DNA from: Candidatus Dormiibacterota bacterium | Lineage (GTDB): Bacteria > Chloroflexota > Dormibacteria > Aeolococcales > Aeolococcaceae | Length of the DNA stretch: 64,000 bases | Assembly (NCBI GenBank): GCA_963754015.1 | Contig: CAVWEG010000004.1 | Span: forward strand, 332,734-396,733 | Direction: 5' to 3' | Notes under the pieces: model-generated | Told to the model about the DNA's origin: nothing | Database searches by the model: none | Seen by the model: the letters and a program-made list of their open reading frames with translations, nothing else | Part shown: positions 2,034 to 24,546 of the stretch, piece by piece | Layout: every line of letters begins with the position of its first letter | Numbering within the stretch: position 1 is the first letter of the stretch | Program-made: the position numbers and the translations under genes

Positions 2034-3486
2034 CAGGCAGATATGTCCGGCACACGACCTCAGCCGATTCGATCATCTGCACGCGCTCCACCTTCGTGAC
2101 GAGCATGGCCTCGTCGATGAGGACATCCATGCAAGAGCTCACTACCGCCTTCGGAAGCCCATTCGACCTGCCGATACTGGCGACTTCGCGCATGGTGATG
2201 CCTTGAGGGCTCTTTTCCCCGTACTTCTTGGCCTCAGTCCGCTCAGTAGCTCGTCGATCTGCAAGCCGCTCGATCTCTTGGAGCAGCGCCAAGGCGGCTG
2301 TTTCAAGGGCTTCGCGAGATGGATTATAGATGCGTCCTACCTGCCACCTACGGGCCCTAAGCCGCGTCCCCATAGCCTGAGCTCTCACCCATACATTCGA
2401 TAGTCGGCCGTGAAACGCAGTGAGATCTAAGGTCGGATACACCACGCTGAGGTGATTGAGGTCGTAGCGGCCGGCGTTCGGGATCGCCGGCTCTCCAGAA
2501 ACCTCTGGAAGATGCACCTCGCACACTTGGCCACGGGCGGCGCTGATGTCCCGCAAAGCCAGAAGGAGCGGATCTAAGGAGGCTCGCAAAGCCACTGCGT
2601 GAAAACGCGCCTCATCGTCGAGGCTAGCCCAATTTCCCAGTATCGACGATTCCCCTGGAGCCGGCTCCCACGATGCATCGACCTCACACGGAGTGTCAGG
2701 TAGGCAGATTGGAATGAGCGCAAACTCCCCTGGGAGTCGCTCCACGACGCGACACTTTCTGACCACGCCATCGGCTCGCGTTCCTGGTGGCAGTGCGGCA
2801 AGTTCCTCGTCCGGCATTTGCTTCCCGTAAAAAACCGTAAGATTTTTCCGATCGCCGCCCGAGTTAAACACCACGACTTCTCCAGAGCGGCTCAGTGCTT
2901 CTGCCAACCGACCTATCGGGGCTCTCAATCGCAGTCGCACTTCCACATGCTCCGTGTCGAGCATGAGCGAACCCGCGCGCTGCAGTGCCGTAACAAGGCG
3001 CGCTCGTGTCTGTCGGAACGCCTCCGTGGGAAGATGCTGAAGCCACGCAGCATCTGGAAAATGGGTAGTGTGGAATTCGTAGCCGGTACCCGCGTCTTCG
3101 TGCATGGCGAATGCGGCAACACGAACATTGCCAAGGGCATCGTCAGTTGCACCGACACTCCGAAGCTGTTCGAGAATGGTTCGCAGCGCATTGCCTTTCC
3201 GCACCATGTCATCCACGACGAGTAGCTTTGCCCCAGCAAGGCGATTCAAGGGAACCGAGCTTAGCGAGCTGCTCGAGACGACTTGTTCCCACGATGGAAT
3301 GCGCTGGGCTGGTTCGTTCGCGAGTGATTCCAGGACCGCACGGTAGATTGCAGTGCCCTTCCGCTCCGTGACAATGACAACATCTGGATGGAAGTCCGTG
3401 ACCTGTTGCACGATGAACTGGCGGAGCTGACGCAGCGTCATCTCGGGGGTTTGCTCCACGACGCCGGTCAGCGCGGCGAGAGTCAA
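1954..3486 (-). CDS. PRTase-domain protein (N-terminal type-I phosphoribosyltransferase-like fold plus a ~380-aa C-terminal region of unknown function)
   Basis: The N-terminal ~130 aa has a PRTase layout. HPDVVIVTERKGTAIYRAVL is followed by the hydrophobic-x4-DD signature AKLLVVDDMVRKGNAL (canonical VLLVDDVLTTGGT). The start overlaps the SIR2-like stop by 4 nt (ATGA). Confidence 0.55.
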   Translation of the reverse strand: MTLAALTGVVEQTPEMTLRQLRQFIVQQVTDFHPDVVIVTERKGTAIYRAVLESLANEPAQRIPSWEQVVSSSSLSSVPLNRLAGAKLLVVDDMVRKGNALRTILEQLRSVGATDDALGNVRVAAFAMHEDAGTGYEFHTTHFPDAAWLQHLPTEAFRQTRARLVTALQRAGSLMLDTEHVEVRLRLRAPIGRLAEALSRSGEVVVFNSGGDRKNLTVFYGKQMPDEELAALPPGTRADGVVRKCRVVERLPGEFALIPICLPDTPCEVDASWEPAPGESSILGNWASLDDEARFHAVALRASLDPLLLALRDISAARGQVCEVHLPEVSGEPAIPNAGRYDLNHLSVVYPTLDLTAFHGRLSNVWVRAQAMGTRLRARRWQVGRIYNPSREALETAALALLQEIERLADRRATERTEAKKYGEKSPQGITMREVASIGRSNGLPKAVVSSCMDVLIDEAMLVTKVERVQMIESAEVVCRTYLPDGEVASDLVRDFTRRHGILEPESTWH

Positions 3487-4547
3487 CTCACGACCCCAGA
3501 TCGAACGGGACCGAGCTCACGAAGAAACGCGTACGCGTCAGGGTCCTCTTGAAGATCAAGCACTTCGCGGAGCTTTCTCACCTTTGATGCCAACTCCGTG
3601 GGACTCCACCCATAGTACTGACCCAAGAGCTCAGCATCCTGCTCGTCGCGGACCCTGGGGAGCAACTCGCCGAGCTCGCGGAAGAAGTCATATGCGGTGA
3701 GCGGAATGTATTTGGCCCCGCGCATTTCCCAGATTGCGCGGTGGAGTCGATATTCGGCGCCGCTGCTGACGGGGTATGCAACGTATGTCCATTTGGAGTG
3801 ACCTTGACGTAGCCGTAGCCGCTCCCTGTACCTTGCGAAGAGGTGTCGGAAGTCTGGATCGGACATCGAGTAACCAACAAAACAGAAGACTCGCGAAAAG
3901 TACAGACGATCCATGAGAATCGCCTCGACGCTTCGGAAGGACGTTGAGGCGAGTGTCTCGTCCTCAGTCATCTGGAAGGTCTTGTCCACTAACCCGTGAA
4001 TATGCAACACGGGAATCCGTCCGTCGAGCAAGGCGGATTCGTAGTCGTTGGCGGTTTCCTCGGTGATCGGAAGCGCCGTCTCGCCAACGGCTTCTTCAAT
4101 AAGCAATTCAAGGTTCGTGGTGAAAATGCGTCGGATTACGATGTCGCCATCCCACTGCACAAGCTTGGCTAGTGCGGCGTGCGCCGGACTCTTGACGCCC
4201 GCCGGCGAAGGACGCATCAACACTTTCAGCTCATCTTGTAACGTGGCGCGTTTCGCTGGTAGATGCGCCTGAATCGCACCAATGATCACTTCGAAAGGCG
4301 CGGAGTTGGCTAAACGCGCGAGTTCGTCCTCTGAGATTCGGGCGCTGCCCGTGAACATATGTTTGCGGAGTAGCTCGCGCGCGACCGCACCTCCCGTGGG
4401 GACGCCAGCGTCGGCAGACATACCCGACCCCACGAGAAAATCCCCTTCCCCGCTCAGGATCTCCCTCGCGATCTCGGTGAGTTCCTGCTCGATCTCACCA
4501 ATCAGGACGTCACCCAGCGCAGATTTTAGATCCGCAAACGAAAGCAT
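3483..4547 (-). CDS. SIR2-like (SIR2_2/DUF4020-type) NAD-binding protein
   Basis: N-terminal Rossmann motif FLVGSGMSADAGVPTGG (compare sirtuin GAGIS..GIP). A HIHG motif lies at the expected catalytic His position and a FVGYSMSDPDF motif downstream. First gene of a four-gene coupled operon. Confidence 0.6.
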   Translation of the reverse strand: MLSFADLKSALGDVLIGEIEQELTEIAREILSGEGDFLVGSGMSADAGVPTGGAVARELLRKHMFTGSARISEDELARLANSAPFEVIIGAIQAHLPAKRATLQDELKVLMRPSPAGVKSPAHAALAKLVQWDGDIVIRRIFTTNLELLIEEAVGETALPITEETANDYESALLDGRIPVLHIHGLVDKTFQMTEDETLASTSFRSVEAILMDRLYFSRVFCFVGYSMSDPDFRHLFARYRERLRLRQGHSKWTYVAYPVSSGAEYRLHRAIWEMRGAKYIPLTAYDFFRELGELLPRVRDEQDAELLGQYYGWSPTELASKVRKLREVLDLQEDPDAYAFLRELGPVRSGVVS

Positions 4548-4833: not shown

Positions 4834-5556
4834 TTACGAGCTCGCGTCGGCCCCCGCCAAGGGCGCTCCCGCCTCTCCTCGCGAATGCGCGTCCCACTTC
4901 CCATCGCGGATCGCCAGGTGGACGTCGCACCGCGCGTCCACTGCCGGGTCATGCGTCGCCACGAGCAGCGTCGCACCCGTGCGAGCTTGGAGTGCAATCA
5001 GCATGTCGATGATCGCTACCCCCGTCGCCGTGTCGAGATTGCCAGTGGGTTCGTCAGCGAGGAGCAGCGGCGGTTCAACAATCAGCGCGCGCGCGATGGC
5101 CACTCGCTGTTGTTCGCCTCCGGATAACTCTGACGGCAGCGCATCCCCGCGACCGTCGAGGCCAACCTCTTCTAATAACTCGCGAGCCCGACGCTGCAAC
5201 GGCTTCCCAGCCTGATAGGGAAGCAAAGGTGCAGCGACGTTGTCAGCGGCGGTGAGCGCCGGCAACAGGTGAAATCGTTGGAACACGAAGCCGACCCTGC
5301 GACGATACGCGACCAACTTCCGACGTGGCAGTCCGTCGAGTTGCGTCTCCCCAACGAGTAACGTGCCCGAGGTCAGCGTGTCCATGCCGCCGATGACATG
5401 GAGCAGCGTGGATTTGCCTGAGCCAGACGGACCGGTGATCACGACCAGCGAACCTGACACGACGTCCAAGTCAAGGTGATCCAGTGCGGTCTGCGAACGT
5501 TCGCCAGCCGGATACTGACGTGTCAACCCACGCCCGGTGATCGCGACTCCTGGCAT
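4834..5556 (-). CDS. ABC transporter ATP-binding protein (MacB/LolD type)
   Basis: Walker [13 protein letters not shown] signature [15 protein letters not shown], Walker B LLLADEP. Lies immediately downstream of the FtsX-type permease. Confidence 0.85.
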
Positions 5557-5559
5557 CCG

Positions 5560-8398
5560 TTAGTCCTCGGCCAAAGCGGCGGCCGGCGCGACGTGCGATG
5601 CCCGCCAAGCTGGAATCGTAAGCACACCGCCGACCAGCCCCAGTCCAATAGCGGCCGCGAGCGCTGCCGCGGGTACCACCGAAAGCGCCGATCCCGTGAG
5701 GATCGCGGCGAGTCCCAGGCCGACCGCGCCCCCAGCTACAACGCCGACTATCCCGACCACCATCCCCTCGGTGAACGCGAGCCGGAAAAGCGTGGCCGGT
5801 CGCCAGCCCGTCGCGGCCAGCACAGCCTGCTCCCCAACGCGGTCGCGCAGGTTGACCGCCAGCACGTCGCCGACGCTGAACGCGCCGAGTAGCAACGCCA
5901 ACACCGCAGCGATAAGGTCAACGCCCCGAACCTGCACACTCACGACATCGCCAAGAGCCGTCCCCACCACCTCGCCTTGGAAGCCCAACTGGACCGCGAG
6001 CAACACCGCGAAGGCCGCGACTCCAATGAACAAACCGAGTGCGCCGCTGACCAGCCGTGCAGGGCGCCGCAGGAGGTTGGCCATCGCGATTCCAGACACG
6101 CGACGTACCGGCCGGTGACGGTGAACGCTTCCGACGATCGCATAGATCGCATCCAAGGGACGGCCGCGAGTCGCGACGTAAGCCGGCGCAAGGCCGGCGA
6201 CGCATGCGAGCGCAAACGCGATTGGGATGACCAAAAGTGCATGCCACCATGGCAACTCCAGATGCAGCGCCAGTGCGAGGATTTCGGCCAACCCTGCGCC
6301 GACCCCTCCGGCACTCAGACCGACCAAGGCAAGCTCCCCAAGGACGAGTCGGAAGAGTGCGGCTCGACCCCAGCCCAGACATGTCAGCACACCCAATTCA
6401 GTGCGTCGCGAGCGCACGCTCGCATAGGCACCGTTCGCGAGAAACAACACACAGACGACCAGCACCAGTACGAAGAGAACGAGGCTCTTTGCGTCCACCG
6501 CATTCAGCACCACCAGCGCCGCCCCTTTGCGAACCCAACCTTCGGCGACGGTCAGTGCCGGCTGGCCGCAACAGCCGGCGGGAACGTCAACATCCACGGT
6601 GGTTGGAGATGATCCGGCGGTGATATCTACCTGCAGCCCGGTGGCTTTCTTGATGGCCGTTGCGACCGCCAGGATCCGGGCCTGGTCGATAGCTTCGAAG
6701 CCGTGCACGTTGGCAATGCGGACTCGGATCGCACTGATTGGTGCAGCGGCGTCGGTGGGTGAGTATCGGGTGCAAAACGGCAATTGATGGTGCGGGTCGT
6801 TGATGTAGCACTGTTGCGAGAGCATCTGCTCCATCGCGGTCAGGGTCGTTAGAAGGAGTGGCGGTTGCGCCAAGTAGCCACCCAGGTTGGTGGTGGGACC
6901 CAGCGGCTGGTTCTTGAGCGCGTTCCGCGATGCCGGGTTTCCTCCCGTGACAACGGGAGGGTAGTACGTCTCGAGAGGTACGGCGCTCAGAGGATTGAAA
7001 CCGGGGAGCTTCTCCGGGTCGAACTGTCCGATCACCGACAAACGGACCGTCCCCGACGAGCCGAGTGTTGGGTTGTAGACGCCGTTGGCGTGGTGCACGG
7101 CGATCGCTTGGAATTGGGTGTCCTCGTTGCCTGGTGGCGCGGTGATGGGTCCTTCGCCGTCGTCGCGGGCGATCCACTCTGAGGGGGCGTTGACGGTCGT
7201 GGAAGGAGTGAGCATGCCACCACTATCCGTGTACGTGATCCCCGCCCCGGTCCAGTAGGCGTACACAAATCCGGGATCCGTAAACGCCCCAGTCGCGGAC
7301 AGCGTTGGGTGTTGCAGTTCGTCGAGGAGGGCGGTGTAGCCAGCTTGCGCCGAGAGTTGGGTGTGTTCGACGACCGACCCCGAAAGTCCGTGCAGAAAGG
7401 CTTCCACCGTAGCGGAGTTGCGATCCGCAAGCCGATCGACCGCGCTCACTCCTGGCGGAATGGTGAGTTGCTGCACATCGGCGGTGAGCGATTCGTCGAG
7501 ATAGGTGCGCGACGCCGCCATAACCGGCAGACCCGAGCTCTCCTCCACCGGACGCGACAACCCCTGCTGCTCCTGGAGGTAGTCACCAGACACGACCGTG
7601 TCCGGCAGTCCCACCAACTTCGCTTCCTGGACCGGATCGACTGCGGCGAGCAGCATCGGGAAGCTGAAGGTCACCAATGCGCCAGGAGCGGATTGAAGTC
7701 CGGCCGCTGCGGCCGAATTGATCGTGGGGGTGACGGCGGAGAAGCATGCGAGGTCGACCTCTCCCGCTGTGTCCAACCCTCCCGGCGGCCCGAAGGGTTG
7801 GAGCGAGGGACAGGTGATCGTTGGTTTCGCTTGTCCTGGCAGGACTTCTTCCACCAGGGCACCGCCATCCATGGGCACGAGAACGAAGCGGTCGGTAGGG
7901 GTGTAATAGACGTAGTACGTGCCCCCGGGATACGACGACAAGCCGTTGTCCGCCTTCCAGGTTGTGGTCACACGATACAACTGATGCGGGTTAGTGTTGC
8001 TGGCAGGGTTGACCGGAACCACGACCGTGGCTTCGGGGATCACATAACCGATGTTGGCAATCGGAGCTGCGACGGAAACACCGGGAAGAGAGAGGATCTT
8101 CTGCCACTGTGCCTGCGTGATCCCGCCAAAGGTATCGGCGAGGTAGTTGTCCCGGACCAGGTTGTCTTGGGTCTCGATAGCGTTGGCGCTGCCTTTTGGG
8201 CGGACGAGGATGTCATAAGCTGGCCGTGCGGCGGCATCGACCGTGCCGTGGACGGCAAGTTGAACTCGTTGAAGCCGCGGCGGTGAGCAGCGAGAAACTC
8301 ACGGATGCGACGACGATGCCGGCACCCAAGGCCAGGAGGCGGTCAATGCGAGACCGCACCTGTTGAACGATGACCCCTCCTAGGCGAAAGCGAACCAC
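5560..8398 (-). CDS. MacB/FtsX-family ABC permease with a very large (~480 aa) extracytoplasmic domain. An apparent frameshift near 8213-8295 separates TM1 from the remainder.
   Basis: The C-terminal three to four TM helices are FtsX-like. The main frame stays open upstream of 8043 (AYDILVRPKGSANAIETQDNLVRDNYL...). The N-terminal TM1 (VQQVRSRIDRLLALGAGIVVASVSFSLL) sits in a different frame (8213-8398, with a GTG at 8398). Confidence 0.7.
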
Positions 8399-8568
8399 TC
8401 CACCATCATGGACCGCTGCACAGGAGCGGTCTAGGGCCAAACGCCGGGGCCGCCAGATGGACAGGAGCAACGTGGATCGATGGGCCGATCTCCGGTCCGA
8501 CCTGCACTTGACACGCGCCGCGGATGCTGGTATGACGGTCGCGATCAGGAAAAACATCTGGAGGGCAT

Positions 8569-8757
8569 GTGATGTTGGGACGCCTCGCCGATCGGATGGT
8601 GTCAAAGCTCCTACCCCACGCCCACGCGAGCGCCCAATGCACGCCGTTCTGTACCCCAAACGATGCTTGTGGATGCACCTGTGGGGGGACGAACTGTCAT
8701 CGCAACGTGTTCTCGAATTGCCACATCACCTGCTTGTGCCCGGCCGCGTGCCCGTAG
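8569..8757 (+). CDS. Cys-rich small peptide (62 aa, 10 Cys in the C-terminal 39 aa), putative secreted disulfide-rich peptide or RiPP-like precursor
   Basis: GGAGGG lies 6-7 nt upstream of ATG 8572 (GTG at 8569). Sequence MMLGRLADRMVSKLLPHAHA|SAQCTPFCTPNDACGCTCGGTNCHRNVFSNCHITCLCPAACP. Immediately followed by MauE-like, thioredoxin-like, ABC exporter and S26 peptidase genes. Confidence 0.45.
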   Translation: MMLGRLADRMVSKLLPHAHASAQCTPFCTPNDACGCTCGGTNCHRNVFSNCHITCLCPAACP

Positions 8758-8851
8758 TCGGGGCTGACGCACAACTTCACTGACGGGTAGCTTGAGGCTG
8801 GTCGCAAATCACCGCCTCAGGTAAGCGGGCTGCAGATCTGGAGGCGCGGCT

Positions 8852-9382
8852 TTGGCGTACGTCGTACTGTGCTGCCGTTTGCTGCTCGGCGCAACATTCG
8901 TCGCATCGCTGGCAACCAAACTCCGGTCTCGCGCGACGCTGCACGAGTTCTTGGCCGCTGCGGGAGCCCTGCTGCGGAGTGACTCGCCCTTGGTCCGCTT
9001 GCTCGCCGTAACCTCGATTGCCACCGAACTCTTGATTGTGATCACACTGCTGATCCCAGCGTTGGTTACCGCAGGGTTCGCGCTGACCGCTCTGTTGCTG
9101 CTCGTCTATACGCTGGCCATCGCCCGGGCATTGCAGCACGGGGTGACGACGCCGTGCCGCTGCATCGGAACCTCGAGTGATCCGCTCCATTCGTGGTTGA
9201 TCCTCCGCAATGCAGTCCTGTTCACCGTGTCAATCGTCGGTATTGCGACATCCTTGGCAGGCAGCCCGGCAGTCGGGTTCACGACCGCGCTGGCAGTCTC
9301 CGTGGCGATCGCCATCTTCGGCCTCGCCCTCGTGATGTCATTCGACGACCTCGTGTACCTTGCGCGCCGGAACCCGATGTGA
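8852..9382 (+). CDS. MauE/DoxX-family membrane protein (disulfide-bond formation accessory)
   Basis: 176 aa with four predicted TM helices and a CxC (TPCRCIG) in a loop. Sits where mauE sits relative to the mauD-like thioredoxin. Confidence 0.55.
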   Translation: MAYVVLCCRLLLGATFVASLATKLRSRATLHEFLAAAGALLRSDSPLVRLLAVTSIATELLIVITLLIPALVTAGFALTALLLLVYTLAIARALQHGVTTPCRCIGTSSDPLHSWLILRNAVLFTVSIVGIATSLAGSPAVGFTTALAVSVAIAIFGLALVMSFDDLVYLARRNPM

Positions 9383-9535
9383 CCGTCGGGAGTTTCGCGC
9401 TCGCATCCGTGGCGGTGGCGATCAGCCTCGTCAACCTCCTCCTAATCCTCGGGATCGTGCGCCGAATGCGCCAGATGGAACCGATGGTTCCGGCCGCATA
9501 TTTCGAAATCGAGTTCGGGTCCCGCGCCCGGCTCC

Positions 9536-9934
9536 GTGCTCCCGGAGTTCAATGCGCGAACGACCAGCGGGCAGCAGGCACACGGCTCAGCACTCGCAAC
9601 AAACCACGGGCTCATGGCTTTTCTCTCGGTGGGTTGTAGCGCGTGCCATGAGCAGATCCCGCTGCTCAACGCTTACGTAGCCCGCGAGCGCCTCGATCCC
9701 GACCATGCCTTGATTGTGGTGAGCGGTGACCCCGACGGACGGAGCGAATACGCGCAACAGGCCGCGTCATTTGCTCATGTCGTTGTCGAAGCGGCGAACG
9801 GCCCTCTCACCCGAATCTTTGATATCAAGGCGTTCCCGACGGTGCTCGCCCTGCACGACGGCCGAGTCCAAGCGAACGCCCCCAGTGTGAACGCGCTCCA
9901 CCATGAGACGGCGCGCTCGCGCGCGGGGAGCTGA
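9536..9934 (+). CDS. Thioredoxin-fold thiol:disulfide oxidoreductase (MauD/TlpA/redoxin-like)
   Basis: Contains FLSVGCSACHEQIPLL (WCxxC-type active site) and an upstream LPEF...G strand pattern. A TM helix that could serve as the membrane anchor is encoded in another frame just upstream (9380-9530), so an N-terminal frameshift is possible. Confidence 0.55.
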   Translation: MLPEFNARTTSGQQAHGSALATNHGLMAFLSVGCSACHEQIPLLNAYVARERLDPDHALIVVSGDPDGRSEYAQQAASFAHVVVEAANGPLTRIFDIKAFPTVLALHDGRVQANAPSVNALHHETARSRAGS

Positions 9935-9946
9935 ATCGAAGCGGAT

Positions 9947-11785
9947 GTGACCCCGCTGAGGCCGTTGCGGGAGCGGGTGCTGTTTGCCTGTCGCCTGTGT
10001 GCGAAAGCAGGAAAGTTTCGTCTCCTTGCGATGCTGTTGACCAGCATCGCACAGGGCCTTGTTCCCGTCGCGTACGCGTTGCTCACCCGCACGCTCATTG
10101 ACGCGCTCGTCGCCGATCAACGGTCGGCTGCGATTGCCGCGCTGGTCGGAATCGCGATTACCTCAGCAGCGCTCATCGTCCTGCCTTCACTCAGCCACTA
10201 CGTGGGCGCCGACGTGGACCGCCGACTTGAGGTCGACCTCCAAGCTGAACTCTTTGGCGCCGTGGCCGCGCTACCAAGTCTTCGCTTTCTGGAAAGCCCA
10301 CCTTTTCTCGACCGTGTTCGCCTGGCGCAGCAAGCAGCGCTGACAGGCCCAGCTCAATTGATCGGCGGCGGTTTCGCCTTCGTGCAAGGCGCGACTACCC
10401 TGGTCGGGTTCGTTGCTACCCTCCTGGCGCTCGATCCGTGGATCGCTATCCTCCTCGCCGCCAGCGCGCTTCCGATGGTGGTGGCGGAGATGCGGCTTGG
10501 CGCCTCGCGCGCAGCGGCCCGACTTCGGGGTACCCCGTTTCGTCGGCAGAGCCTCGCCTACACGTCCAGCATGATCGACGCCAACGTCGCCCAGGAGATC
10601 CAACTCTTCGGTATCGGCAGCTTCCTGCGCGACAAGCTGGTGCACGCGCTTCGAGGAGCCACTGACATTGAGAGGCGTCAGGATCGCCATGAGCTGTGGG
10701 TCCGTGCCCTGCTCGGCGTCCTCGCCGCGGTCGCCGCCGCAGCCAGTCTGGGCCTGATTGTCGTCGGCGCGCTGCAGCATCGGTTCAACGTTGGTGATGT
10801 GGCAATAGTCCTCGCCGCCATGTCCGCATTGCAGTTGACGTTCACGTCCCTCACGACCCAACTCGGCCAGATGGCCGAGGTGCTGCGCCTCCTTGATCAC
10901 TATCAGACCGTGCTCGAAACGGCTGCGCACCGCGAACCTCAGACGGCCGCAAATCCGACACGTCGTGAGGTTCCGGTTGTGCACCGTGGTATCGAGATGC
11001 GCGACGTCTGGTTCCGCTACGAGGAGGGTCAGCCGTGGGTATTACAGGGGGTCAACCTCACCATCCCCGCCCATGGCGCACTCGCGCTTGTCGGCCCAAA
11101 CGGCGCTGGCAAGACCACGATTGCGAAACTCCTCTGCCGCTTCTACGACCCAACCCATGGCGAGGTGCTCTGGGATGGGATCAACATCCGCGAGTTCCCA
11201 ATGGACGAGCTGCGGCGCCACATTGGCATCGTGCTGCAAGATCCGGTCACGTACGATTTGACGGCCGCCGAGAACATCGGCGTGGGCAGCCTCGGCCGTC
11301 TTCGAAATCAGCCGGCGATCGAAGCGGCGGCCGCCATGACCAGCCTCCATGACATCTTGCGAGCGCTCCCTCGTGGGTACGAGACACTGCTGAGTCGCCT
11401 CTACTTTGACGAGCGCAGCGACGACCCCGGCCTGCTGCTTTCGGTAGGGCAACAGCAACGGCTGGCACTTGCTCGCGCCCTACTCCGCGCAGAGGCTCAG
11501 TTACTCGTCCTTGATGAACCCACTGCGGCGCTCGACCCCCAGGCGGAAGCCGCAATCCATGAGCGCCTCCGCGATCTCCGTCATGGCCGATCGAGCCTGC
11601 TCATCTCGCACCGCCTCAGCACCACCCGCGACGCCGACTGCATCGCGGTGCTCAGTGCAGGTCGCGTCGTCGAGTCAGGCAACCATCAGGAGCTAATGAG
11701 CCTGGGAGGTCTCTACGCGCGGTTATTCACCGTACAGGCCGCGGGTTACGCCGAGCAGCCGGCTCCCCTGACCGCAAACGGGTGA
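9947..11785 (+). CDS. ABC transporter, fused permease/ATP-binding exporter (612 aa)
   Basis: Six-TM N-terminal domain, then Walker A GPNGAGKTT, signature LSVGQQQRLALARALL and Walker B LLVLDEPT. Confidence 0.85.
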   Translation: MTPLRPLRERVLFACRLCAKAGKFRLLAMLLTSIAQGLVPVAYALLTRTLIDALVADQRSAAIAALVGIAITSAALIVLPSLSHYVGADVDRRLEVDLQAELFGAVAALPSLRFLESPPFLDRVRLAQQAALTGPAQLIGGGFAFVQGATTLVGFVATLLALDPWIAILLAASALPMVVAEMRLGASRAAARLRGTPFRRQSLAYTSSMIDANVAQEIQLFGIGSFLRDKLVHALRGATDIERRQDRHELWVRALLGVLAAVAAAASLGLIVVGALQHRFNVGDVAIVLAAMSALQLTFTSLTTQLGQMAEVLRLLDHYQTVLETAAHREPQTAANPTRREVPVVHRGIEMRDVWFRYEEGQPWVLQGVNLTIPAHGALALVGPNGAGKTTIAKLLCRFYDPTHGEVLWDGINIREFPMDELRRHIGIVLQDPVTYDLTAAENIGVGSLGRLRNQPAIEAAAAMTSLHDILRALPRGYETLLSRLYFDERSDDPGLLLSVGQQQRLALARALLRAEAQLLVLDEPTAALDPQAEAAIHERLRDLRHGRSSLLISHRLSTTRDADCIAVLSAGRVVESGNHQELMSLGGLYARLFTVQAAGYAEQPAPLTANG

Positions 11786-12380
11786 TGACCACGCCGACAA
11801 TACGCTCGACCCGAATCGCACCCCACGCTTTCGAATCCAGGCTCAACGGGTTATCGCCGAGCACGATCACCCGCCCAGCAGCGATGCGACGGCCGGAAAG
11901 ATCGGGATGGGCGGCCACAACAACTGGCGGGTACGCGTCACGCGCAAGTGCGACCACCCGTTTCACCATCCATGGAACCCCAGTGCTATGCCCCGTGTCG
12001 GCTCCATCCGTGCGAGGAGGACGGAGCACGACGATTGAGCCGCGTCGGGGATGCACCCAAACACGGCGCACAAGCACCCGATCCCCCGACCGCAACGCTG
12101 GCTCCATGCTCCCGCCGTCAACTTCGACAACGATGAGGGTATGTCGGAGGATCCACACCCCGACGATCGCGCAGCTGACGAGCGAGAAGGCCCGCGTCGG
12201 TACACGCTTTCGGTGTTGGGGCGCCGAGGGTGTGCCATGCAAGAATCCCACTGTTTGGCGCCTCCCGGTGGGATGGATCGCTTGTTGACCGTCAGTGTGT
12301 CTGGTTTCGGGATCAGGAACGAAGGCGTCAAACGCCCCATCGAACCGCTCGCCACGGCCGCTCCTGAGCCGGGCAATCAC
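11727..12380 (-). CDS. Signal peptidase I (S26) homolog, stand-alone
   Basis: TM anchor LVSCAIVGVWIL. Catalytic Ser box GGSMEPAL, Lys box WMVKRVVAL and VLGDNPLSLDSKAWG box. Convergent with the end of the ABC exporter. Confidence 0.6.
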   Translation of the reverse strand: MIARLRSGRGERFDGAFDAFVPDPETRHTDGQQAIHPTGRRQTVGFLHGTPSAPQHRKRVPTRAFSLVSCAIVGVWILRHTLIVVEVDGGSMEPALRSGDRVLVRRVWVHPRRGSIVVLRPPRTDGADTGHSTGVPWMVKRVVALARDAYPPVVVAAHPDLSGRRIAAGRVIVLGDNPLSLDSKAWGAIRVERIVGVVITRLRSGEPAARRNPRPVR

Positions 12381-12533: not shown

Positions 12534-13082
12534 TCAGGACGTCGAGTTGCCGCCCTTGATGGTGACGTTCTTGTAGCCCATGACGAGCACAAGGACACCG
12601 ATGACGCACATGCCCGCGCAGACTGCCAGTGACACGTATGCCGCGGTGGGTTGTTTGGAGGAGATCGCGGTGATGACGAAGATGAATACCACACCAAGCG
12701 CAAGCACCGAGGCCAGCGCGATCGTAAAGCAAACTCGCGCCATTGGCCATAACATCACCGGATCGCTGAACTGCACATCACCCCTGAATCCTGTCGAGGA
12801 GATTGCCGCACTAACAGCGTTTGCCTTCTCTTGCGAAGTACCGCTCGCCGGCAGTGCCGCGTTGACGAGCGTTTGAGCTGCCGTTTGCGTCAGCGTGCTA
12901 TTGAGCGCGACGTGCCGCGCCAAATCGACCGGAACGGCCTGGTCATTGGCAGCTCCCTGAATAACCGTTGCGAGCTGAGCCGGCTCGAGCGCCGCAGGGC
13001 GCGCCCCACCCGAGCCGTTTGTCAGAGCGATGACGCTTTGAAAGCGCTTGATGGGGTCGGTGTAGTCTGGATCGAACGCCAT
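12534..13082 (-). CDS. Membrane protein (soluble N-terminal domain plus two C-terminal TM helices)
   Basis: ORF track. C-terminal hydrophobic helices CFTIALASVLALGVVFIFVITAI and AAYVSLAVCAGMCVIGVLVLVMGY. Confidence 0.4.
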   Translation of the reverse strand: MAFDPDYTDPIKRFQSVIALTNGSGGARPAALEPAQLATVIQGAANDQAVPVDLARHVALNSTLTQTAAQTLVNAALPASGTSQEKANAVSAAISSTGFRGDVQFSDPVMLWPMARVCFTIALASVLALGVVFIFVITAISSKQPTAAYVSLAVCAGMCVIGVLVLVMGYKNVTIKGGNSTS

Positions 13083-13858: not shown

Positions 13859-14617
13859 CTAAGCGGCCGCACTCTGCGGTGACCTTGCAACCTGCATCAC
13901 GTCCTCCCTGTTCAGTTCGTAGTCAGCGACAGGGCTCTCACCAACTCTCAGCGTCTTGTCCGGTGGATGCTTCTCAACGAGTCTTCTCATCGCCCGCTCG
14001 ATTGGGTGATCGACCAAACGATCGATCTGGTCATCAGTGAGGCCCTTTTGGCGGTAGTGGTCGCGCAGGCCCTCCGCGGAGTATTCGATGTGGAGGTGGC
14101 GGCGGATCACAAACAGTCTCCCGACCGTCTCAAAGACATCGGGGTGATACACGTCATCCACAATCATTAGCTGGTGCGCGAGTGTTCCGATGCCGTTGAA
14201 ACGTAGCAGCTCGGCGAAGAGTTGATATGAACCCATCACGCGCTTGAGGTCGTGACCGAGATCGTGTAGTGACAGCAGGTCGTCGGCTACTCCGCGCTCG
14301 CGCGCCACAAATCGGATGTACTCACCGAAACTCACCCTTTGGAAATTGGTCAGGTCACGATCGAGATGCTTGGTGAGTTCGCTCTTGCCGATGCCGCCTT
14401 CGCCACTGACGAGGATCACCTCCGCGCCCTTAGCCGCACCGAAGCCTCGCGTCAGGCTGACAGCCCAACTTCCCGCGCCGACGCAGACGGCTGCCCCAAT
14501 GATCCAATACAACGTCCCCAGCGACCAGTTGGCGGCCATCCTGACGATCAGCAACGCAATCACCGTCACGGCGCCGGCGATTACGGGCCAAGCAGCACGT
14601 CGATTCAGGTTCAGCAT
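13859..14617 (-). CDS. Membrane-anchored P-loop NMP-kinase-like protein (CMP-kinase-like)
   Basis: One or two TM helices, then VILVSGEGGIGKSELTKHL (Walker A) and SFGEYIRFVARERG. This is paralogous to the SFGDYVRHVARERG motif of the 15443-16009 protein and resembles the Cmk DTGAMYR region. Start trimmed to Met36, which overlaps the stop of the upstream membrane-protein gene by 1 nt. Confidence 0.5.
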   Translation of the reverse strand: MLNLNRRAAWPVIAGAVTVIALLIVRMAANWSLGTLYWIIGAAVCVGAGSWAVSLTRGFGAAKGAEVILVSGEGGIGKSELTKHLDRDLTNFQRVSFGEYIRFVARERGVADDLLSLHDLGHDLKRVMGSYQLFAELLRFNGIGTLAHQLMIVDDVYHPDVFETVGRLFVIRRHLHIEYSAEGLRDHYRQKGLTDDQIDRLVDHPIERAMRRLVEKHPPDKTLRVGESPVADYELNREDVMQVARSPQSAAA

Positions 14618-15087
14618 CAAGACCCGGTCGCCACTGCCACAAGAAGCGCAGCAAGCAACGTACACGCCGCCCCACGACGAACAGACTGCGCGAACAGGTT
14701 CCTCGGGAGGGGCCTGATCCATCGGTTCACCACGAACCAGACGAATCCGCAGGCAAAGCCAGCAAAGGAACCGATCGCCGTAGCCCCAGTCAGCGCATCG
14801 TAATCGTTCGGGTTAAGGTCGATGACGTTAGTGGATACCTTGAGCGCAACCAGTCCGGCAACTACTCCTACGACACTCAGCCCAACCACGAATCCAGCGA
14901 TGTTTGCGGCTGCTGCCACGAATGCCTCCGTCCAAGGCGTGTCTTTACCTTTGCGCGCGGCAAACCACTCGAGACTTGCTCCGCAAATGAGCCCAGCGGC
15001 GGCACCAACCGCGCCGAATGCCCCGGGCAACCCGATGCCTACACGATGCGGGATAAGGATCACACCCAGTACCTTCACGGTGCTCAC
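14617..15087 (-). CDS. Membrane protein (four predicted TM helices)
   Basis: ORF track. Hydrophobic segments throughout. Translationally coupled to the downstream TM-kinase gene. Confidence 0.4.
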   Translation of the reverse strand: MSTVKVLGVILIPHRVGIGLPGAFGAVGAAAGLICGASLEWFAARKGKDTPWTEAFVAAAANIAGFVVGLSVVGVVAGLVALKVSTNVIDLNPNDYDALTGATAIGSFAGFACGFVWFVVNRWIRPLPRNLFAQSVRRGAACTLLAALLVAVATGS

Positions 15088-15442: not shown

Positions 15443-16009
15443 CTAGTACTCGATCGCCGGCGCGCTGATCCTCTGCAAATCCCGCCGTAGAAACTGATAT
15501 GCAGTTTCGGCCGCTTCCTCGATCGTTAGGCCCCCTTCGACCGTGTAATCCGCAAGGTCGACAACTGCACCGACTCCTGACTCAGTCGCATGGGCCTCGA
15601 CGGCCTCGGCCAGTTTGACGCCGATCCCCCGCGCTTGCAGGCGCTTACTTCGTAACGCACTATCGACGCTGACCGCGACGAGCCGAAACGGCAACGGGTG
15701 GACTATTCGTGCCAGTGCGTGGATCGCCTCGACATGACGCACACCGTCCACGACCACGGAGCCTCGTGCGTAGCCTGAAAAGTTCAGAACCGCTCGGCAA
15801 AATGACGGCCAGCCGACCGCGATCAACTCATCGCCGATCGCTTGCAGCACCTCGCGCCGGCCGCAATCGATGCCGCGTTCGCGGGCAACGTGTCGAACGT
15901 AATCGCCGAAACTCGCATATGCACAATCCATGCGCGCCGCGAGTTCATGGGCGAGTGTGGTCTTGCCACTCCCGATTCGACCCGCGACCCCGACGGCGAC
16001 TGGCCTCAT
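15443..16009 (-). CDS. P-loop nucleoside-monophosphate kinase-like protein (cytidylate-kinase-like)
   Basis: VAVGVAGRIGSGKTTLAHELAARM followed by SFGDYVRHVARERGID, matching the Cmk layout (G-x-G-x-GKxT ... DTGAMYR). ATGA overlap with the upstream ASCH gene. Confidence 0.55.
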   Translation of the reverse strand: MRPVAVGVAGRIGSGKTTLAHELAARMDCAYASFGDYVRHVARERGIDCGRREVLQAIGDELIAVGWPSFCRAVLNFSGYARGSVVVDGVRHVEAIHALARIVHPLPFRLVAVSVDSALRSKRLQARGIGVKLAEAVEAHATESGVGAVVDLADYTVEGGLTIEEAAETAYQFLRRDLQRISAPAIEY

Positions 16010-16506: not shown

Positions 16507-17786
16507 CTCGCCATCTGCTCACAACGGCGTGGCGGTTTCCAGCCAAGCTTGGCAAGCTCACGGCTTTCGTCGCGACAGATCCCCCGCAGTTGGGTTGTAG
16601 ACATTGCGACTCGGATTCCTTCCGCTCGGGTCAGTGGTCTGTCGACCCTAGCCGCAACCTGCTGCTCAGGGTCAACGCCAAGGGTCATCGCATCCAGGAT
16701 CACTGGGAGCACGTTGGGCGACGCACAACTGAAGACGCGATTACCTGAGGTCCAGACATCGACTTGGTCGCGAATTGGATGCCGCCGACTCACGTCAGCA
16801 AGGACATCTCCGTCTACAACTCGATGGAGGACCGGATCGATGACAGAGCTCTCATGCTTCCTGATACGGACCCGAACCCAACCAACGGCTCGCTCATCCC
16901 AAAGCGCCTGCGCGCCCATCCAATCGGGCGCGGTTGGCGGTCTGCCGGAGGTGGTGAGTATTTGTAAGTTTCCGCGTCGCCAATCCATCGGCAAGTCGCG
17001 CCACCCCGCGGCGAAGAGCGCATTGATCTCGAACGGCGGTGACAAGTATCGGATGGCCGTCGGTAAGGCTCTGATCGCTCGAAGTCCATGTGCCGCGGCA
17101 CGCTCTCGGAAATGAGCTCGATCACGGCTCCAGGCCGGCCTCGTTCCCGGCGCCGGCAGCGTAATAAACAGAGGCGCGCCCGAACGAGCGCAACTTGCGG
17201 CTGCCCACAGGAATGCGTCTATGTGTTCGGGGTACCAAGGAGGATCAGCAACGACCGCCGCCGCCGATAGATCGGGGATCTTATCGAGAGTCAGATCACA
17301 CACATGAAGTGTGCCAGGTGGTCCCGCCGACGCTAATCGGTCGAGAATTATTGAACTGTAATCTACCAACACGAAGCGACGATTGAGTCGGCGACTGTAA
17401 GCGGCGAGGTAGAGGCTGGGAGTCCCGAGAAGGACGACGGTGTCGCCTGGCTGAGTGGCTGCGAGTGTGCGAGCAAGCAGGTCATCGATGGCCTCGGGCG
17501 CATACCGCCAGTCGAAATCGAGGGGATGAGGAGGTGGGAGCACGCTTCCTAAGGTCTTCGAGGGCAGCGGCCGATGCGTGGCTCTAGATAGAACGGCGCG
17601 ATGAGCGTCTGGCCCGAGTGTCCCCGCGAGCCGTAGCCGATTGAGGCCGTCTTCGACGAGCGACGGGTACACCCCGGGCAGGGCTCGAACCAATTCATCA
17701 AAGTCATGCACGCCCTGTGCTATGGCGTCACCGATCCAGTGATCAACCCGGCGACGGAACGCCGCGGTGTCTCGAGCGTGACTCAC
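16503..17786 (-). CDS. MT-A70-like (DPPW-motif) N6-adenine-type methyltransferase
   Basis: Motif IV AAVVADPPWYPEH (DPPW). Likely GTG start at 17786 forming a GTGA overlap with the stop of the radical-SAM ORF; the ORF-track start at 17867 would overlap by 84 nt. Confidence 0.55.
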   Translation of the reverse strand: MSHARDTAAFRRRVDHWIGDAIAQGVHDFDELVRALPGVYPSLVEDGLNRLRLAGTLGPDAHRAVLSRATHRPLPSKTLGSVLPPPHPLDFDWRYAPEAIDDLLARTLAATQPGDTVVLLGTPSLYLAAYSRRLNRRFVLVDYSSIILDRLASAGPPGTLHVCDLTLDKIPDLSAAAVVADPPWYPEHIDAFLWAAASCARSGAPLFITLPAPGTRPAWSRDRAHFRERAAAHGLRAIRALPTAIRYLSPPFEINALFAAGWRDLPMDWRRGNLQILTTSGRPPTAPDWMGAQALWDERAVGWVRVRIRKHESSVIDPVLHRVVDGDVLADVSRRHPIRDQVDVWTSGNRVFSCASPNVLPVILDAMTLGVDPEQQVAARVDRPLTRAEGIRVAMSTTQLRGICRDESRELAKLGWKPPRRCEQMAS

Positions 17787-23811: not shown

Positions 23812-24034
23812 AACTGGGGTAAAAGTGGGGTAAAAAAGGCGTTCAAAACGCTACGGCGAATCCGGAGCATGTATCATCTCGGTAGATATGGACTCGATAT
23901 GGACTCTGAGCTGGGGTACAGACCCCTCCAGCCACTCCTTTGACCCTAATCTGACCCTAATGTGGGGTGGGCGCTACTGGGCACTGGCGGGCACTGGCGT
24001 ATTCGGATTGACCGACACTGAGATCAAAAGACGC
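23812..24034. repeat. AT-rich att-site arm region with four pairs of short tandem direct repeats
   Basis: Seen directly: ggggtaaaaGTggggtaaaa, atatggactcGatatggactc, tgaccctaatCtgaccctaat, gggcactggcgggcactggcg. Lies between the integrase start and the tRNA-Ser 3' end. Confidence 0.45.

Positions 24035-24457: not shown

Positions 24458-24546
<89 letters not shown>

Follow-up and report, generated by a model that had tools for sequence, protein, structure and literature searches.

The gene cluster and its setting

The window, by which we mean the whole 64,000-nucleotide stretch of DNA that was analyzed, contains a small open reading frame (ORF) at positions 8569 to 8757 of the forward strand, followed by genes for a MauE-like membrane protein, a thioredoxin-fold protein, an ABC exporter, and a signal peptidase I homolog (S26). 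Direct reading of the sequence gives an alternative GTG start at 8569, and the preliminary description had counted 62 residues. A Shine-Dalgarno sequence (GGAGGG, 8560 to 8565, forward strand) is separated by 6 nt from an ATG at 8572, which is the likelier start and yields a precursor of 61 aa (8572 to 8757). The earlier report of a small Cys-rich ORF with a good ribosome-binding site and 10 Cys in its last 39 residues was confirmed from the sequence; only its length changes. The precursor divides into a 21-aa amphipathic leader (MLGRLADRMVSKLLPHAHASA; 8572 to 8634, forward strand), with a conserved Pro and an A-x-A motif at Pro+4/Pro+6, and a predicted 40-aa core with 10 Cys (QCTPFCTPNDACGCTCGGTNCHRNVFSNCHITCLCPAACP; 8635 to 8757 with the stop codon, forward strand). 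With five disulfides, the core has a predicted monoisotopic mass of 4151.53 Da, or 4134.50 Da with a cyclized N-terminal Gln. When every ORF segment in the six frames of the window is compared, the precursor is the top Cys outlier (10 Cys in 40 aa), the runner-up being an Arg-rich, off-frame segment with 8 Cys. GC content by codon position is coding-like for the precursor (0.51/0.59/0.76) and not for the overlapping ORF at 8370 to 8783 (0.67/0.57/0.62), such that coding-type GC3 is found only in the peptide frame. No consensus promoter, terminator, or significant RNA structure was found near the precursor in the window.

The MauE-like protein (8852 to 9382, forward strand; 176 aa) matches PF07291 with an E value of 5e-22 and 78.9 bits, above the cutoff of 27, as expected from its earlier designation as a MauE-family membrane protein next to the precursor. 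K23, E59, and C102-R-C104 are invariant in a 55-sequence alignment. In the AF2 model (pLDDT of 93.4), the CXC motif lies in a loop (residues 96 to 114) between helices 69-95 and 115-135; no solved structure was similar to the model. We regard this protein as a candidate DsbB-like, quinone-coupled thiol oxidase. The K/R bias predicts a cytoplasmic location for both its CXC loop and the thioredoxin domain, which conflicts with a simple extracytoplasmic scheme of the DsbA/DsbB type.

The gene for the thioredoxin-fold protein (9379 to 9934, forward strand) starts with a GTG at 9379 that overlaps the mauE stop codon (ATGTGA) and is translationally coupled to it. A +1 frameshift near 9511-9513 interrupts it, with the transmembrane (TM) anchor in one frame and the GCSAC domain (to 9934) in the next. 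An intact 184-aa ortholog from a related locus (L001) aligns with frame +1 at 9388 to 9561 (residues 4 to 56) and with frame +2 at 9512 to 9925 (residues 45 to 182), the two matches sharing residues at the junction; a single additional base near 9511-9513 accounts for the two frames. Matches to profile libraries were weak (Thioredoxin_4, E = 0.05), and assignment as a MauD equivalog was rejected at 12 bits against a TIGR02661 cutoff of 189. Thus, the CxxC thioredoxin-fold protein described previously is present in the form of a TM-anchored GCSAC domain but not as a single intact ORF.

The fused ABC exporter that was said to follow is indeed present (9947 to 11785, forward strand; 612 aa; ABC_tran, E = 5e-28). 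It is an MsbA/HlyB-like half-transporter, MsbA-like over its full length, and a Pfam-type domain search gave no C39 peptidase domain, so that a separate leader peptidase is needed. The opposite strand encodes a stand-alone signal peptidase I homolog of the bacterial (Ser/Lys) type (11727 to 12380; PF10502, E = 1.5e-16; TIGR02227, 61.5 bits against a cutoff of 47). The three boxes listed for it in the preliminary description (GGSMEP, VKRVVAL, and GDNPLSLDSK) were recovered and line up with solved SPase I structures, boxes B and E among them, and an N-terminal TM anchor precedes the catalytic domain. This enzyme is the candidate leader peptidase. Its gene is convergent in the window and shares the operon's strand in most related loci. 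A 182-aa membrane protein (12534 to 13082), previously counted as part of the system, has no counterpart among the related loci. On the other side, a MacB-type ATPase (4834 to 5556) and an FtsX permease (5560 to 8043), both on the reverse strand and assigned by Pfam (ABC_tran and FtsX), are divergent from the cluster. They may have a role in immunity or as an accessory transporter, but are not conserved members of the family: tblastn gave no counterpart of the FtsX protein in any related locus.

GC content is 59 to 64% over the first 24 kb of the window versus 65 to 70% beyond. A tyrosine integrase (22504 to 23811, reverse strand; Phage_integrase, E = 4e-11) and a tRNA-Ser (24033 to 24123, reverse strand; detected with ARAGORN) mark the end of a low-GC integrative island that carries the cluster, which was acquired on this island.

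Conservation among related loci

About 120 related MauE loci (119 to 121) from more than 20 actinomycete genera were sampled in 8-kb blocks, and the order precursor-MauE-Trx-ABC-S26 recurs across these genera (Trx, thioredoxin-fold gene). A precursor with the family leader lies directly upstream of MauE, on the same strand, in 74 of 121 loci; in the remaining 47, none was seen within the block sampled. The neighborhood search proposed earlier for Cys-rich ORFs beside mauE pairs thus returned a recurrent precursor, and the small ORF, rather than the overlapping 8370-8783 frame, is the one conserved beside MauE genes in relatives. Co-occurrence was counted in 24 precursor-positive loci with enough flank and in 17 precursor-negative loci. 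The exporter was present in 23/24 versus 8/17 (Fisher P = 5e-4), S26 in 20/24 versus 5/17 (P = 9e-4), and Trx in 18/24 versus 6/17 (P = 0.02). The concern that MauE and Trx form a housekeeping pair is therefore not borne out here. Overall, Trx partners were found in 70 of the ~120 loci, each with a single CxxC, and the Ser box is intact in all 56 cluster-linked S26 enzymes. Many related loci have a SARP/AfsR-type pathway regulator directly upstream, a class typical of specialized-metabolite clusters; the window has no SARP regulator. Some genomes hold two such loci with a different precursor in each.

Family precursors share the leader motif L..LGDRLL.RLVP...A.A and have hypervariable cores. 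In 59 nonidentical leaders, the Pro is conserved in 56, Ala+4 in 53, and Ala+6 in all 59. An HMM of the leader alone, with the window sequence excluded from its construction, was run on 1,244 window segments, and its sole match was the precursor ORF (E = 4.8e-5; next best, E = 0.2). A metagenomic relative (L002) and the three precursors of the decRiPPter MauE families (Kloosterman et al. 2020, PLoS Biol, PMC7794033) carry this leader as well. Charged residues (D, R, K, and E) are spread throughout the family leaders, which show no n-region/h-region architecture. The longest uncharged run averages only 6.8 residues (9 in the window leader, whose maximum 9-residue hydropathy is 0.67), so the leader has no Sec h-region. 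The earlier view of the leader as something other than a canonical Sec signal thus extends to the whole family, as does its A-x-A site of the kind cleaved by S26 peptidases. The position of the cut has moved: the family-conserved A-x-A is ASA rather than AHA, with cleavage predicted between ASA and QC, 7 residues after the conserved Pro. Both the missing h-region and the A-x-A after a conserved Pro are consistent with leader removal by S26, as proposed.

An even number of Cys was counted in 77 of 78 HMM-detected cores, compared with 61% of control ORF segments, and in all 61 trimmed precursors (4, 6, 8, or 10 Cys); full disulfide pairing predicts such parity. The window core itself is a singleton. 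It had no similarity to any other sampled family core and no homolog in a word search of 5.8 billion proteins.

Comparison with known systems

The idea of MauE-associated, Cys-rich RiPP families is not new. In the available part of the decRiPPter account (PMC7794033), three Streptomyces candidate families named MauE were predicted computationally, in Streptomyces only, each with a mauE homolog beside a short precursor that contains 8 or more Cys, as in the window. The three decRiPPter precursors have even Cys counts and a window-like leader (...L..R[LF][LV]P.[VEH][DEA]A.A..C), and that part of the account does not describe a conserved leader, an A-x-A site, an S26 peptidase, or Cys parity. The window differs from these families in its lower-GC, non-Streptomyces-like genome, orphan 10-Cys core, integrative island, missing SARP regulator, and frameshifted Trx. 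No product of any family member was reported in the literature searched.

In a preprint (10.64898/2026.03.05.709764), MauE is shown to be a DsbB-like oxidase whose active site is a CXC motif. Two MauE homologs complemented an Escherichia coli dsbB deletion, their CXC was required, and the quinone was predicted to be held by a conserved Lys and a conserved Glu. The window protein shares with those proteins PF07291, the CXC between TM helices 3 and 4, the Lys (TM1) and Glu (TM2), and a proposed thioredoxin-fold partner. Four TM helices and a C-G-C-F-G motif characterize the preprint proteins, which are called generalist oxidases, widespread without mau genes; the window subfamily, in contrast, has C-R-C-[FI]-G, a fifth C-terminal helix, a dedicated operon that includes the peptide substrate, and an orientation that K/R bias predicts to be opposite. 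Actinomycetes and peptides are outside the discussion of the preprint. In the mau system itself, as cited in PMC7794033 and the preprint (van der Palen et al. 1997), mauE and mauD are needed for the light chain of methylamine dehydrogenase, a small, very Cys-rich protein with multiple disulfides, and MauE is likewise encoded together with a TM-anchored CxxC thioredoxin-fold protein. In the window, by contrast, the putative substrate is a free peptide of 40 aa, accompanied by an ABC exporter and S26, the redoxin scores far below the MauD cutoff, and no mauA, mauB, or mauG was found among the neighbors examined.

The sublancin 168 operon of Bacillus subtilis SPbeta (sunA-sunT-bdbA-sunS-bdbB; PMC4336743) also groups a ribosomal disulfide peptide with a dedicated ABC exporter and two redox proteins, the Trx-like oxidoreductase BdbA and the membrane thiol oxidase BdbB, and both clusters lie on mobile elements. 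BdbB is a DsbB homolog, whereas the window has MauE; SunT has its own C39 peptidase and a double-glycine leader, whereas the window has a separate S26 and an A-x-A site; and sublancin is S-glycosylated with 2 disulfides, whereas 2 to 5 are predicted in the window family. In LPP RiPPs (Nat Commun 2026, PMC13381572), a cluster-encoded, SipW-like homolog of type I signal peptidases removes a non-Sec leader, as proposed here. The LPP enzyme is of the archaeal/ER-type SipW class, RRE dependent, and from Bacillota; the window S26 is of the bacterial Ser/Lys type, in an actinomycete family, with no RRE seen and a different peptide chemistry. As a matter of naming, a peptide of the window type would be labeled RiPP-like, or bacteriocin-like if disulfides are its sole modification.

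Interpretation of the cluster

We consider it probable (about 0.7) that the locus is a biosynthesis and export cluster for a leader-bearing, multiply disulfide-bridged, ribosomally made secreted peptide. Synteny, leader, and Cys parity largely support the dedicated folding, export, and processing functions proposed in the preliminary description. It is possible, though clearly less likely, that the window holds a decaying, nonfunctional copy, acquired horizontally on the integrative island, and that no mature peptide is made here, which would be compatible with the same explanation for the family. The frameshift separating the Trx anchor from its CxxC domain, the missing SARP regulator, the location in a low-GC island with an integrase and tRNA-Ser at its boundary, the convergent rather than codirectional S26, and the precedent of one decayed related locus (L036) all point this way. 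Yet the other four ORFs (precursor, MauE, ABC, and S26) are unbroken and keep their catalytic motifs; Trx is missing in any case from 6 of 24 precursor-positive loci, with mauD in only one of the three decRiPPter families; and the frameshift could be an assembly error, since the source contig is a 940-kb assembly.

Other readings concern the chemistry and the route of export. Metal binding of a metallothionein- or chalkophore-like kind, or thioether or other cross-links as in lanthipeptides, sactipeptides, and ranthipeptides, would suit a core type common in several RiPP classes; one family UniRef entry is automatically labeled "Metallothionein," and Trx could act reductively, keeping thiols free. 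We think this improbable, as neither chemistry requires even Cys counts, the conserved neighbor families contain no dehydratase, cyclase, or radical-SAM enzyme and offer only the thiol-disulfide pair and the peptidase, and the leader and exporter indicate an extracellular product. Slightly less probable still is a small protein secreted in the ordinary way through Sec, with a paralogous signal peptidase cutting its signal peptide and the exporter unrelated or serving immunity: an A-x-A after a helix-breaking Pro and an S26 enzyme are classic Sec/SPase I features, but the leader is charged throughout, has the short uncharged runs and low hydropathy given above, and travels with the exporter as the most tightly linked gene. 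We give the least credence to MauE and Trx as a general oxidative-folding pair for secreted proteins, beside an incidental or noncoding ORF. MauE homologs do have a general ability to replace dsbB and are widely distributed apart from mau genes, and some sampled MauE loci lack a visible precursor; against this stand the leader-conserved precursor directly upstream in most loci, the linkage to a dedicated exporter, S26, and SARP regulator, the paired loci with different precursors, the accessory island, and the coding-type GC3 of the peptide frame.

Under the favored reading of a disulfide-peptide cluster, the 61-aa precursor would be translated with its amphipathic, non-Sec leader, and a dedicated redox relay would join its ten core Cys in five disulfides. 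In this relay, the TM-anchored Trx would act on the peptide, MauE would reoxidize Trx through its invariant C-x-C, and a membrane quinone, bound by the invariant Lys and Glu, would accept the electrons. Residue conservation, family-wide even Cys counts, and the two distant MauE homologs that replace DsbB suggest this relay. Before or after oxidation, the MsbA-like exporter would move the peptide out, as its conserved linkage suggests. The membrane-anchored Ser/Lys S26, with its active site outside, would then cut between ASA and Q and release a peptide of ~4.15 kDa, a role to which the A-x-A, the Pro 7 residues upstream, and the conserved linkage point.

The window precursor adds a new member to a widespread actinomycete family flagged computationally in 2020. 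Given the Trx frameshift, the cluster may be impaired in the window genome. Across the family, hypervariable cores behind a constant leader suggest a diversifying extracellular function, either antagonism or signaling.

A leader-defined family of Cys-rich precursors

The small Cys-rich ORF and its GGAGGG ribosome-binding site are present in the sequence as the preliminary description had them. By direct reading, GGAGGG occupies 8560-8565, and of the two start candidates downstream, GTG at 8569 and ATG at 8572, the latter is better placed (6-nt spacing); the stop codon lies at 8755-8757. Translation from the ATG yields a 61-aa precursor, MLGRLADRMVSKLLPHAHASA followed by QCTPFCTPNDACGCTCGGTNCHRNVFSNCHITCLCPAACP, with 10 Cys within 40 residues; no other six-frame ORF segment in the 64-kb window is as strong a Cys outlier. 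Its GC content by codon position (0.51/0.59/0.76) is coding-like, and it ends 95 nt before the mauE gene on the same strand. An overlapping ORF at 8370-8783 was rejected as a real gene on the basis of a noncoding pattern of GC by codon position (0.67/0.57/0.62). Promoter and terminator scans near the precursor were negative, as was RNA folding of the precursor-mauE spacer. Upstream of the precursor, a direct repeat, TG[CG]ACAGGAGC, occurs at 8417-8427 and 8458-8468 (41 nt apart, ∼100 to 150 nt 5′ of the precursor start), as does a 13-nt inverted repeat (8351-8363/8420-8432); these repeats may be operator sites or may reflect chance.

Related loci from other genomes and metagenomes are designated L001 to L121. 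One genome per species was scanned with a pattern written at the codon level for MauE's invariant P-C-R-C-[IF]-G-x12-R-N core. The pattern returned at least 119 loci, almost all from actinomycetes; at least 4 of these matches are from nonactinomycete metagenome-assembled genomes (MAGs; L006, L069, L084, and L118), two of which (L006 and L069) proved on checking to be chance matches rather than MauE. Among the matches listed, 58 of the 107 loci with enough upstream sequence had, by a strict regular expression, a leader-bearing, Cys-rich ORF that lies on the strand of MauE and ends 0 to 300 nt upstream of it, and a leader HMM raised the number of precursor-positive loci to 74 of 121; the small ORF is conserved in relatives of the window cluster. 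At least 24 genera bear precursors, including Nonomuraea, Streptomyces, Microbispora, Amycolatopsis, Micromonospora, Actinoplanes, Kribbella, Kitasatospora, and Lentzea.

To define the leader, 59 nonidentical sequences were aligned on a conserved Pro (position 0; 56/59). Met lies at −17, hydrophobic residues at −13, −10, −6, −5, −2, and −1, and G-D-R at −9 to −7 (Arg in 48/59), while Ala occupies +4 in 53/59 and +6 in 59/59, and the first Cys follows at +7 to +14. The shared leader is thus an amphipathic L..LGDRLL.RLV segment, a Pro, and an A-x-A at +4/+6. A leader-only HMM built from 57 other members, with the window sequence excluded, gave the window ORF 19.7 bits (E = 4.8e-5) as the sole significant match of 1,244 six-frame segments, the next best having E = 0.2. 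Because this model singles out the window ORF and a leader-bearing ORF recurs upstream of MauE, we consider the window ORF a genuine family member. An A-x-A seven residues past a helix breaker is a classic signal peptidase I (SPase I) recognition element. The preliminary description had favored cleavage at AHA-S; the family register moves the predicted site in the window to the bond between ASA and QC.

Downstream of the leader, the cores are hypervariable. In L002, a relative of the window MauE, the 62-aa gene directly upstream reads MMKAVQRLGDRVLGRLVPQEDAGA-C... and contains 6 Cys; its leader is the same as that of the window precursor, and its core is unrelated. A word-indexed search among 5.8 billion proteins gave no match to the window precursor alone, the exact precursor, ABC exporter, S26, and short thioredoxin-fold sequences of the window are absent from the public protein collection, and a metagenome scan returned no close orthologue of the core, only two distant relatives. 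By these searches, the window core is an orphan within its family. Elsewhere, some loci carry two or three tandem precursors with a common leader and differing cores (L116, L066, and L070), and some genomes hold two separate MauE loci (L010 and L093, L022 and L107, L005 and L112, L060 and L116, L027 and L121, and L004 and L009); both arrangements look like diversification through duplication. The L036 precursor (258-482; uncultured Actinomycetota MAG) belongs to a “CxGxYFCNAxGHPGYWYRFCC” core class, with 4 rather than 6 Cys and a divergent, extended C terminus; no thioredoxin-fold, ABC, or S26 gene was detected nearby, and the copy appears decayed.

The genes linked to the precursor

The identity of the MauE protein (8852-9382, forward strand) was confirmed by PF07291, which covers the full domain at 78.9 bits (cutoff, 27; E = 5.4e-22). 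Across an alignment of 55 sequences, K23, E59, and C102-R-C104 are invariant, and in an AF2 model of the window protein (pLDDT 93.4), the CXC motif sits in a loop (96-114) between helices 69-95 and 115-135. A March 2026 preprint reported that two MauE homologues, from D. aliphaticivorans and C. abyssi only, replace DsbB in Escherichia coli, that a CXC lying between transmembrane (TM) helices three and four is essential, and that quinone is probably held in place by a conserved Lys and a conserved Glu (10.64898/2026.03.05.709764). Judged by its alignment and predicted structure, the window MauE has these residues and this CXC placement. The actinomycete subfamily differs from the preprint proteins, which have four helices and usually C-G-C-F-G, in reading C-R-C-[FI]-G (9155-9169 in the window) and in having a fifth, C-terminal helix that ends in a conserved acidic FDDLV tail; the residue right after CXC, which most of the family has as Phe, is Ile in the window. 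A Foldseek comparison of the model with the PDB gave no significant match and hence no fold support for likeness to DsbB or VKOR. Only two word-sharing relatives of the window MauE were detectable, and an exhaustive HMMER search placed 2,051 clusters at 50% identity in the subfamily at E ≤ 1e-10.

The next gene (9379-9934, forward strand) had been described as a thioredoxin-fold CxxC protein paired with MauE in the manner of MauD. The GCSAC domain and a TM anchor are both present; the gene is not one intact ORF, and a score of 12.2 bits against TIGR02661 (cutoff, 188.6) ruled it out as a MauD equivalog. The anchor, VTVGSFALASVAVAISLVNLLLILGIVRRMR..., starts at GTG 9379, which overlaps the stop codon of mauE (ATGTGA); the GCSAC domain is read in the following frame and runs to 9934. 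The metagenomic orthologue in L001 is intact (184 aa), its residues 4-56 aligning to frame +1 and its residues 45-182 to frame +2. One extra base near 9511-9513 (junction, ∼9505-9515) would explain the split: the window has GAG TTC GGG, against GAG TCG GGT as implied by the orthologue. The frameshift may be a mutation, leaving a pseudogene, or an assembly error; a heuristic search of the window for further frameshifts was nonspecific. Thioredoxin-fold partners in related loci carry a single CxxC.

The remaining neighbors, an ABC exporter and a convergent stand-alone S26 peptidase, are as first described. The exporter (9947-11785, forward strand; 612 aa) is MsbA/HlyB-like. The S26 protein (11727-12380, reverse strand) scored 61.5 bits against TIGR02227 (cutoff, 47) and 61.3 bits against PF10502 (cutoff, 22.9; E = 1.5e-16). 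It contains GGSMEP (Ser box), VKRVVAL (Lys box), and GDNPLSLDSK (box E), of which the Ser box (box B) and box E align to the solved SPase I structures 4me8 and 4wvh, and a hydrophobic segment, AFSLVSCAIVGVWIL, precedes the Ser box as an N-terminal TM anchor. By model scores, catalytic boxes, and anchor, it is a bacterial-type signal peptidase I (S26A). The 182-aa membrane protein (12534-13082) that had been counted as part of the cluster has no counterpart in any related locus, and a divergent MacB/FtsX pair (4834-8043), considered as a conserved member, likewise has none.

Linkage was gauged in the 41 loci, among the matches listed, whose flanks reach at least 300 nt upstream of MauE and 4 kb downstream of it, in which the order precursor-MauE-Trx-ABC-S26 recurs (Trx, the anchored thioredoxin-fold protein). 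The ABC gene was present in 23/24 precursor-positive and 8/17 precursor-negative loci (Fisher P = 5e-4), S26 in 20/24 and 5/17 (P = 9e-4), and Trx in 18/24 and 6/17 (P = 0.02). All 56 linked S26 proteins retain the Ser box, with the Lys box in 41/56 and box E in 47/56, and in every one of them a TM segment directly precedes the catalytic domain. From this linkage and the invariant A-x-A, we infer that S26 would cleave the window precursor after A-x-A. In many loci, a SARP/AfsR-type regulator (Trans_reg_C plus BTAD plus NB-ARC/TPR) lies directly upstream of the precursor; none is present in the window. Stop-to-stop ORF clustering across the 58 precursor-positive loci, which in high-GC DNA also produces many spurious antisense families, left MauE, Trx, ABC, S26, and SARP-type regulators as the only conserved gene families.

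Predicted cysteine pairing and a proposed order of maturation

The number of Cys residues is even in 61/61 trimmed precursors (4 Cys, n = 4; 6 Cys, n = 26; 8 Cys, n = 24; 10 Cys, n = 7) and in 77/78 HMM-detected cores, two artifactual secondary matches having been discounted; among control ORF segments drawn from these loci and comparable in size and Cys content, it is even in 61%. This parity is what complete disulfide pairing predicts. The lone true exception is a 7-Cys precursor, AAVAGCEVITYCQPCGSKYKRCFAQYCDGKYRSGFCNESGSC, encoded on the reverse strand of L098 at 1306-1734 (uncultured Saccharothrix MAG), whose odd Cys could indicate a free thiol, an intermolecular disulfide, or a sequencing error.

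Other chemistries and export routes account for these loci less well. An even number of Cys is not required by metal binding or by thioether chemistry, and a lanthipeptide, sactipeptide, or other thioether class was rejected because no such maturase is conserved in the cluster, neither a dehydratase/cyclase nor a radical-SAM maturase being among the gene families conserved across the 58 precursor-positive loci. A Sec-type signal peptide would consist of a positive n-region, an unbroken h-region of ∼10 to 15 residues, and then an A-x-A. The A-x-A is present and the h-region is not, because charged residues break the leader, its longest uncharged run averaging 6.8 residues in the family (9 residues in the window, with a maximal 9-residue Kyte-Doolittle mean of 0.67). 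A double-glycine bacteriocin system with a peptidase-containing exporter (PCAT) was also rejected: the window leader lacks a GG/GA cleavage motif, no Peptidase_C39 domain was found on the 612-aa exporter, and its alignment to bacteriocin and NHLP exporters starts only at their transporter core. A canonical methylamine utilization (mau) cluster would place mauA, mauB, and mauG beside mauE and mauD; no such domains were found among the neighbors scanned (289-23811), and these genes are absent from the conserved neighbor families of related loci.

The best-supported model, founded on sequence features and gene linkage, has four steps, the catalytic ones all inferred. The leader-bearing precursor would be made, a Trx-MauE-quinone relay would pair its Cys residues, the ABC transporter would export the peptide, and the S26 peptidase would trim it at A-x-A. 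Functionally, the sublancin operon (PMC4336743) is an analogue, comprising a peptide, an ABC transporter, the Trx-like BdbA, and the membrane oxidase BdbB.

The side of the membrane on which pairing would occur is a puzzle. Mean K+R counts in MauE are 3.4 for loop 1, 0 for loop 2, 3.0 for the CXC loop, and 0.35 for loop 4. The Trx partners among L003 to L121 (e.g., L014, L033, L049, and L057) begin with Met and 1 to 3 uncharged residues (Met-Pro-[YF]-L), pass straight into the TM segment, and carry a near-invariant [IV][RK]RLR[ED]H motif after it. By the positive-inside rule, both the CXC loop and the Trx domain would face the cytoplasm, so that oxidation would precede export. Modification before export is a typical order in RiPP maturation. 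Such Lys- and Arg-rich loops do not fit a simple periplasmic DsbA/DsbB-like picture; the conserved basic residues of MauE and Trx may instead be just functional. Cytoplasmic redox sites would contradict both the complementation data for distant MauE homologues and the TOPCONS prediction for the homologues tested, which gives the CXC loop the opposite orientation (10.64898/2026.03.05.709764).

Taken jointly, these features admit a bolder reading, to which we assign a probability of only about one in five. An inverted-topology MauE-Trx pair would act at the cytoplasmic face, the leader would recruit the precursor to this membrane-bound oxidase, two to five disulfides would form before export, the ABC transporter would export a knotted peptide, and S26 would serve outside as a dedicated RiPP leader peptidase.

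Genomic setting and place among known systems

GC content is 59 to 64% over the first ∼24 kb of the window (1-24550) and 65 to 70% beyond. At the end of the low-GC region lies a tyrosine integrase gene (22504-23811, reverse strand), adjoined by tRNA-Ser(GGA) (24033-24123, reverse strand), with tRNA-Ser(CGA) nearby (24458-24546, forward strand). This combination is the signature of an integrative genomic island, whose left end falls outside the window. Because it lies on this island, the cluster was probably acquired horizontally, and it may be inactive in this host given the Trx frameshift and the lack of a pathway regulator.

The island also carries SIR2_2, phosphoribosyltransferase, HTH-M78 regulator, DUF4186, and DUF6932 genes and a radical-SAM fragment. 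Three reverse-strand genes, one for a SIR2_2-domain protein (3483-4547), one for a phosphoribosyltransferase-domain protein of 510 aa (1954-3486), and one for a protein of 403 aa without a Pfam match (822-2033), look like a candidate antiphage defense module. Between 17783 and 19401 on the reverse strand, DUF4186 (18772-19401), a radical-SAM fragment (CNWRCWYC; 18258-18851), and a further, unassigned ORF (17783-18316) overlap in different frames and could be a second frameshifted gene or genuine overlapping genes; Pfam did not confirm a split radical-SAM gene at 17783-18851. Two paralogous P-loop (AAA_18-like) proteins (13859-14722 and 15443-16009, reverse strand) have a common SFG[ED]Y[IV]R[FH]VARERG motif, the former with an extra N-terminal, Cys-rich, TM-containing extension. 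Close to the integrase, an HTH_3 plus Peptidase_M78 (ImmA/IrrE-like) regulator (19380-20783, reverse strand) adjoins a DUF6932 protein (20797-21381, reverse strand), a pairing typical of mobile-element control modules.

The 2020 decRiPPter study lists three candidate RiPP families from Streptomyces that contain mauE, accompanied in one of them by mauD, and whose precursors have at least 8 Cys each; it proposes a role in precursor modification (PMC7794033). All three published precursors fit the leader profile defined here, and the window precursor (61 aa, 10 Cys) falls within the same Cys range. The window locus is a new, orphan-core member of a computationally predicted family, not a new kind of system, and the preliminary interpretation of a secreted, Cys-rich peptide with its own redox machinery was essentially right. 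Full-text literature searches found no later paper on MauE-linked Cys-rich peptide clusters and no reported product of the family, nor did the literature searched yield the leader and A-x-A site common to the family, its link to S26, the even Cys numbers as a rule, its spread across actinomycetes, or the topology puzzle. No NCBIfam model matches the 11 precursors scanned (that of the window and ten others), Pfam does not match the window precursor, and no database match has a precomputed Pfam domain. The precursor profile has 29 database matches, all of which either lack a name or are called “hypothetical protein,” and one UniRef entry is autolabeled “Metallothionein.”

The window's own value is more modest: its 10-Cys member is an orphan, sits on a mobile island, and may be crippled by a frameshift. 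More broadly, a one-paragraph computational hint from 2020 has become a defined, testable family, delimited by its recognizable leader and predicted cleavage site, by five core genes (precursor, MauE, Trx, ABC, and S26), and by a Cys parity rule, that spans dozens of antibiotic-producing actinomycete genera with every precursor annotated as hypothetical. It would supply MauE, not shown to act as an oxidase until 2026, with a dedicated natural substrate, and would probably add a second RiPP leader peptidase of the signal-peptidase type, the first, SipW-like and from Bacillota, having been reported in May 2026 (PMC13381572). If the bolder reading is true, these clusters would exemplify leader-guided, quinone-coupled disulfide formation at the cytoplasmic face and would show type I signal peptidases recruited a second time, independently, into RiPP maturation, and the hypervariable cores would amount to a library of knotted peptides made by nature. 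Should the products be stable, multiply disulfide bridged, and hypervariable, the family would constitute an untapped class of natural products and scaffolds, conceptually like conotoxins or defensins.
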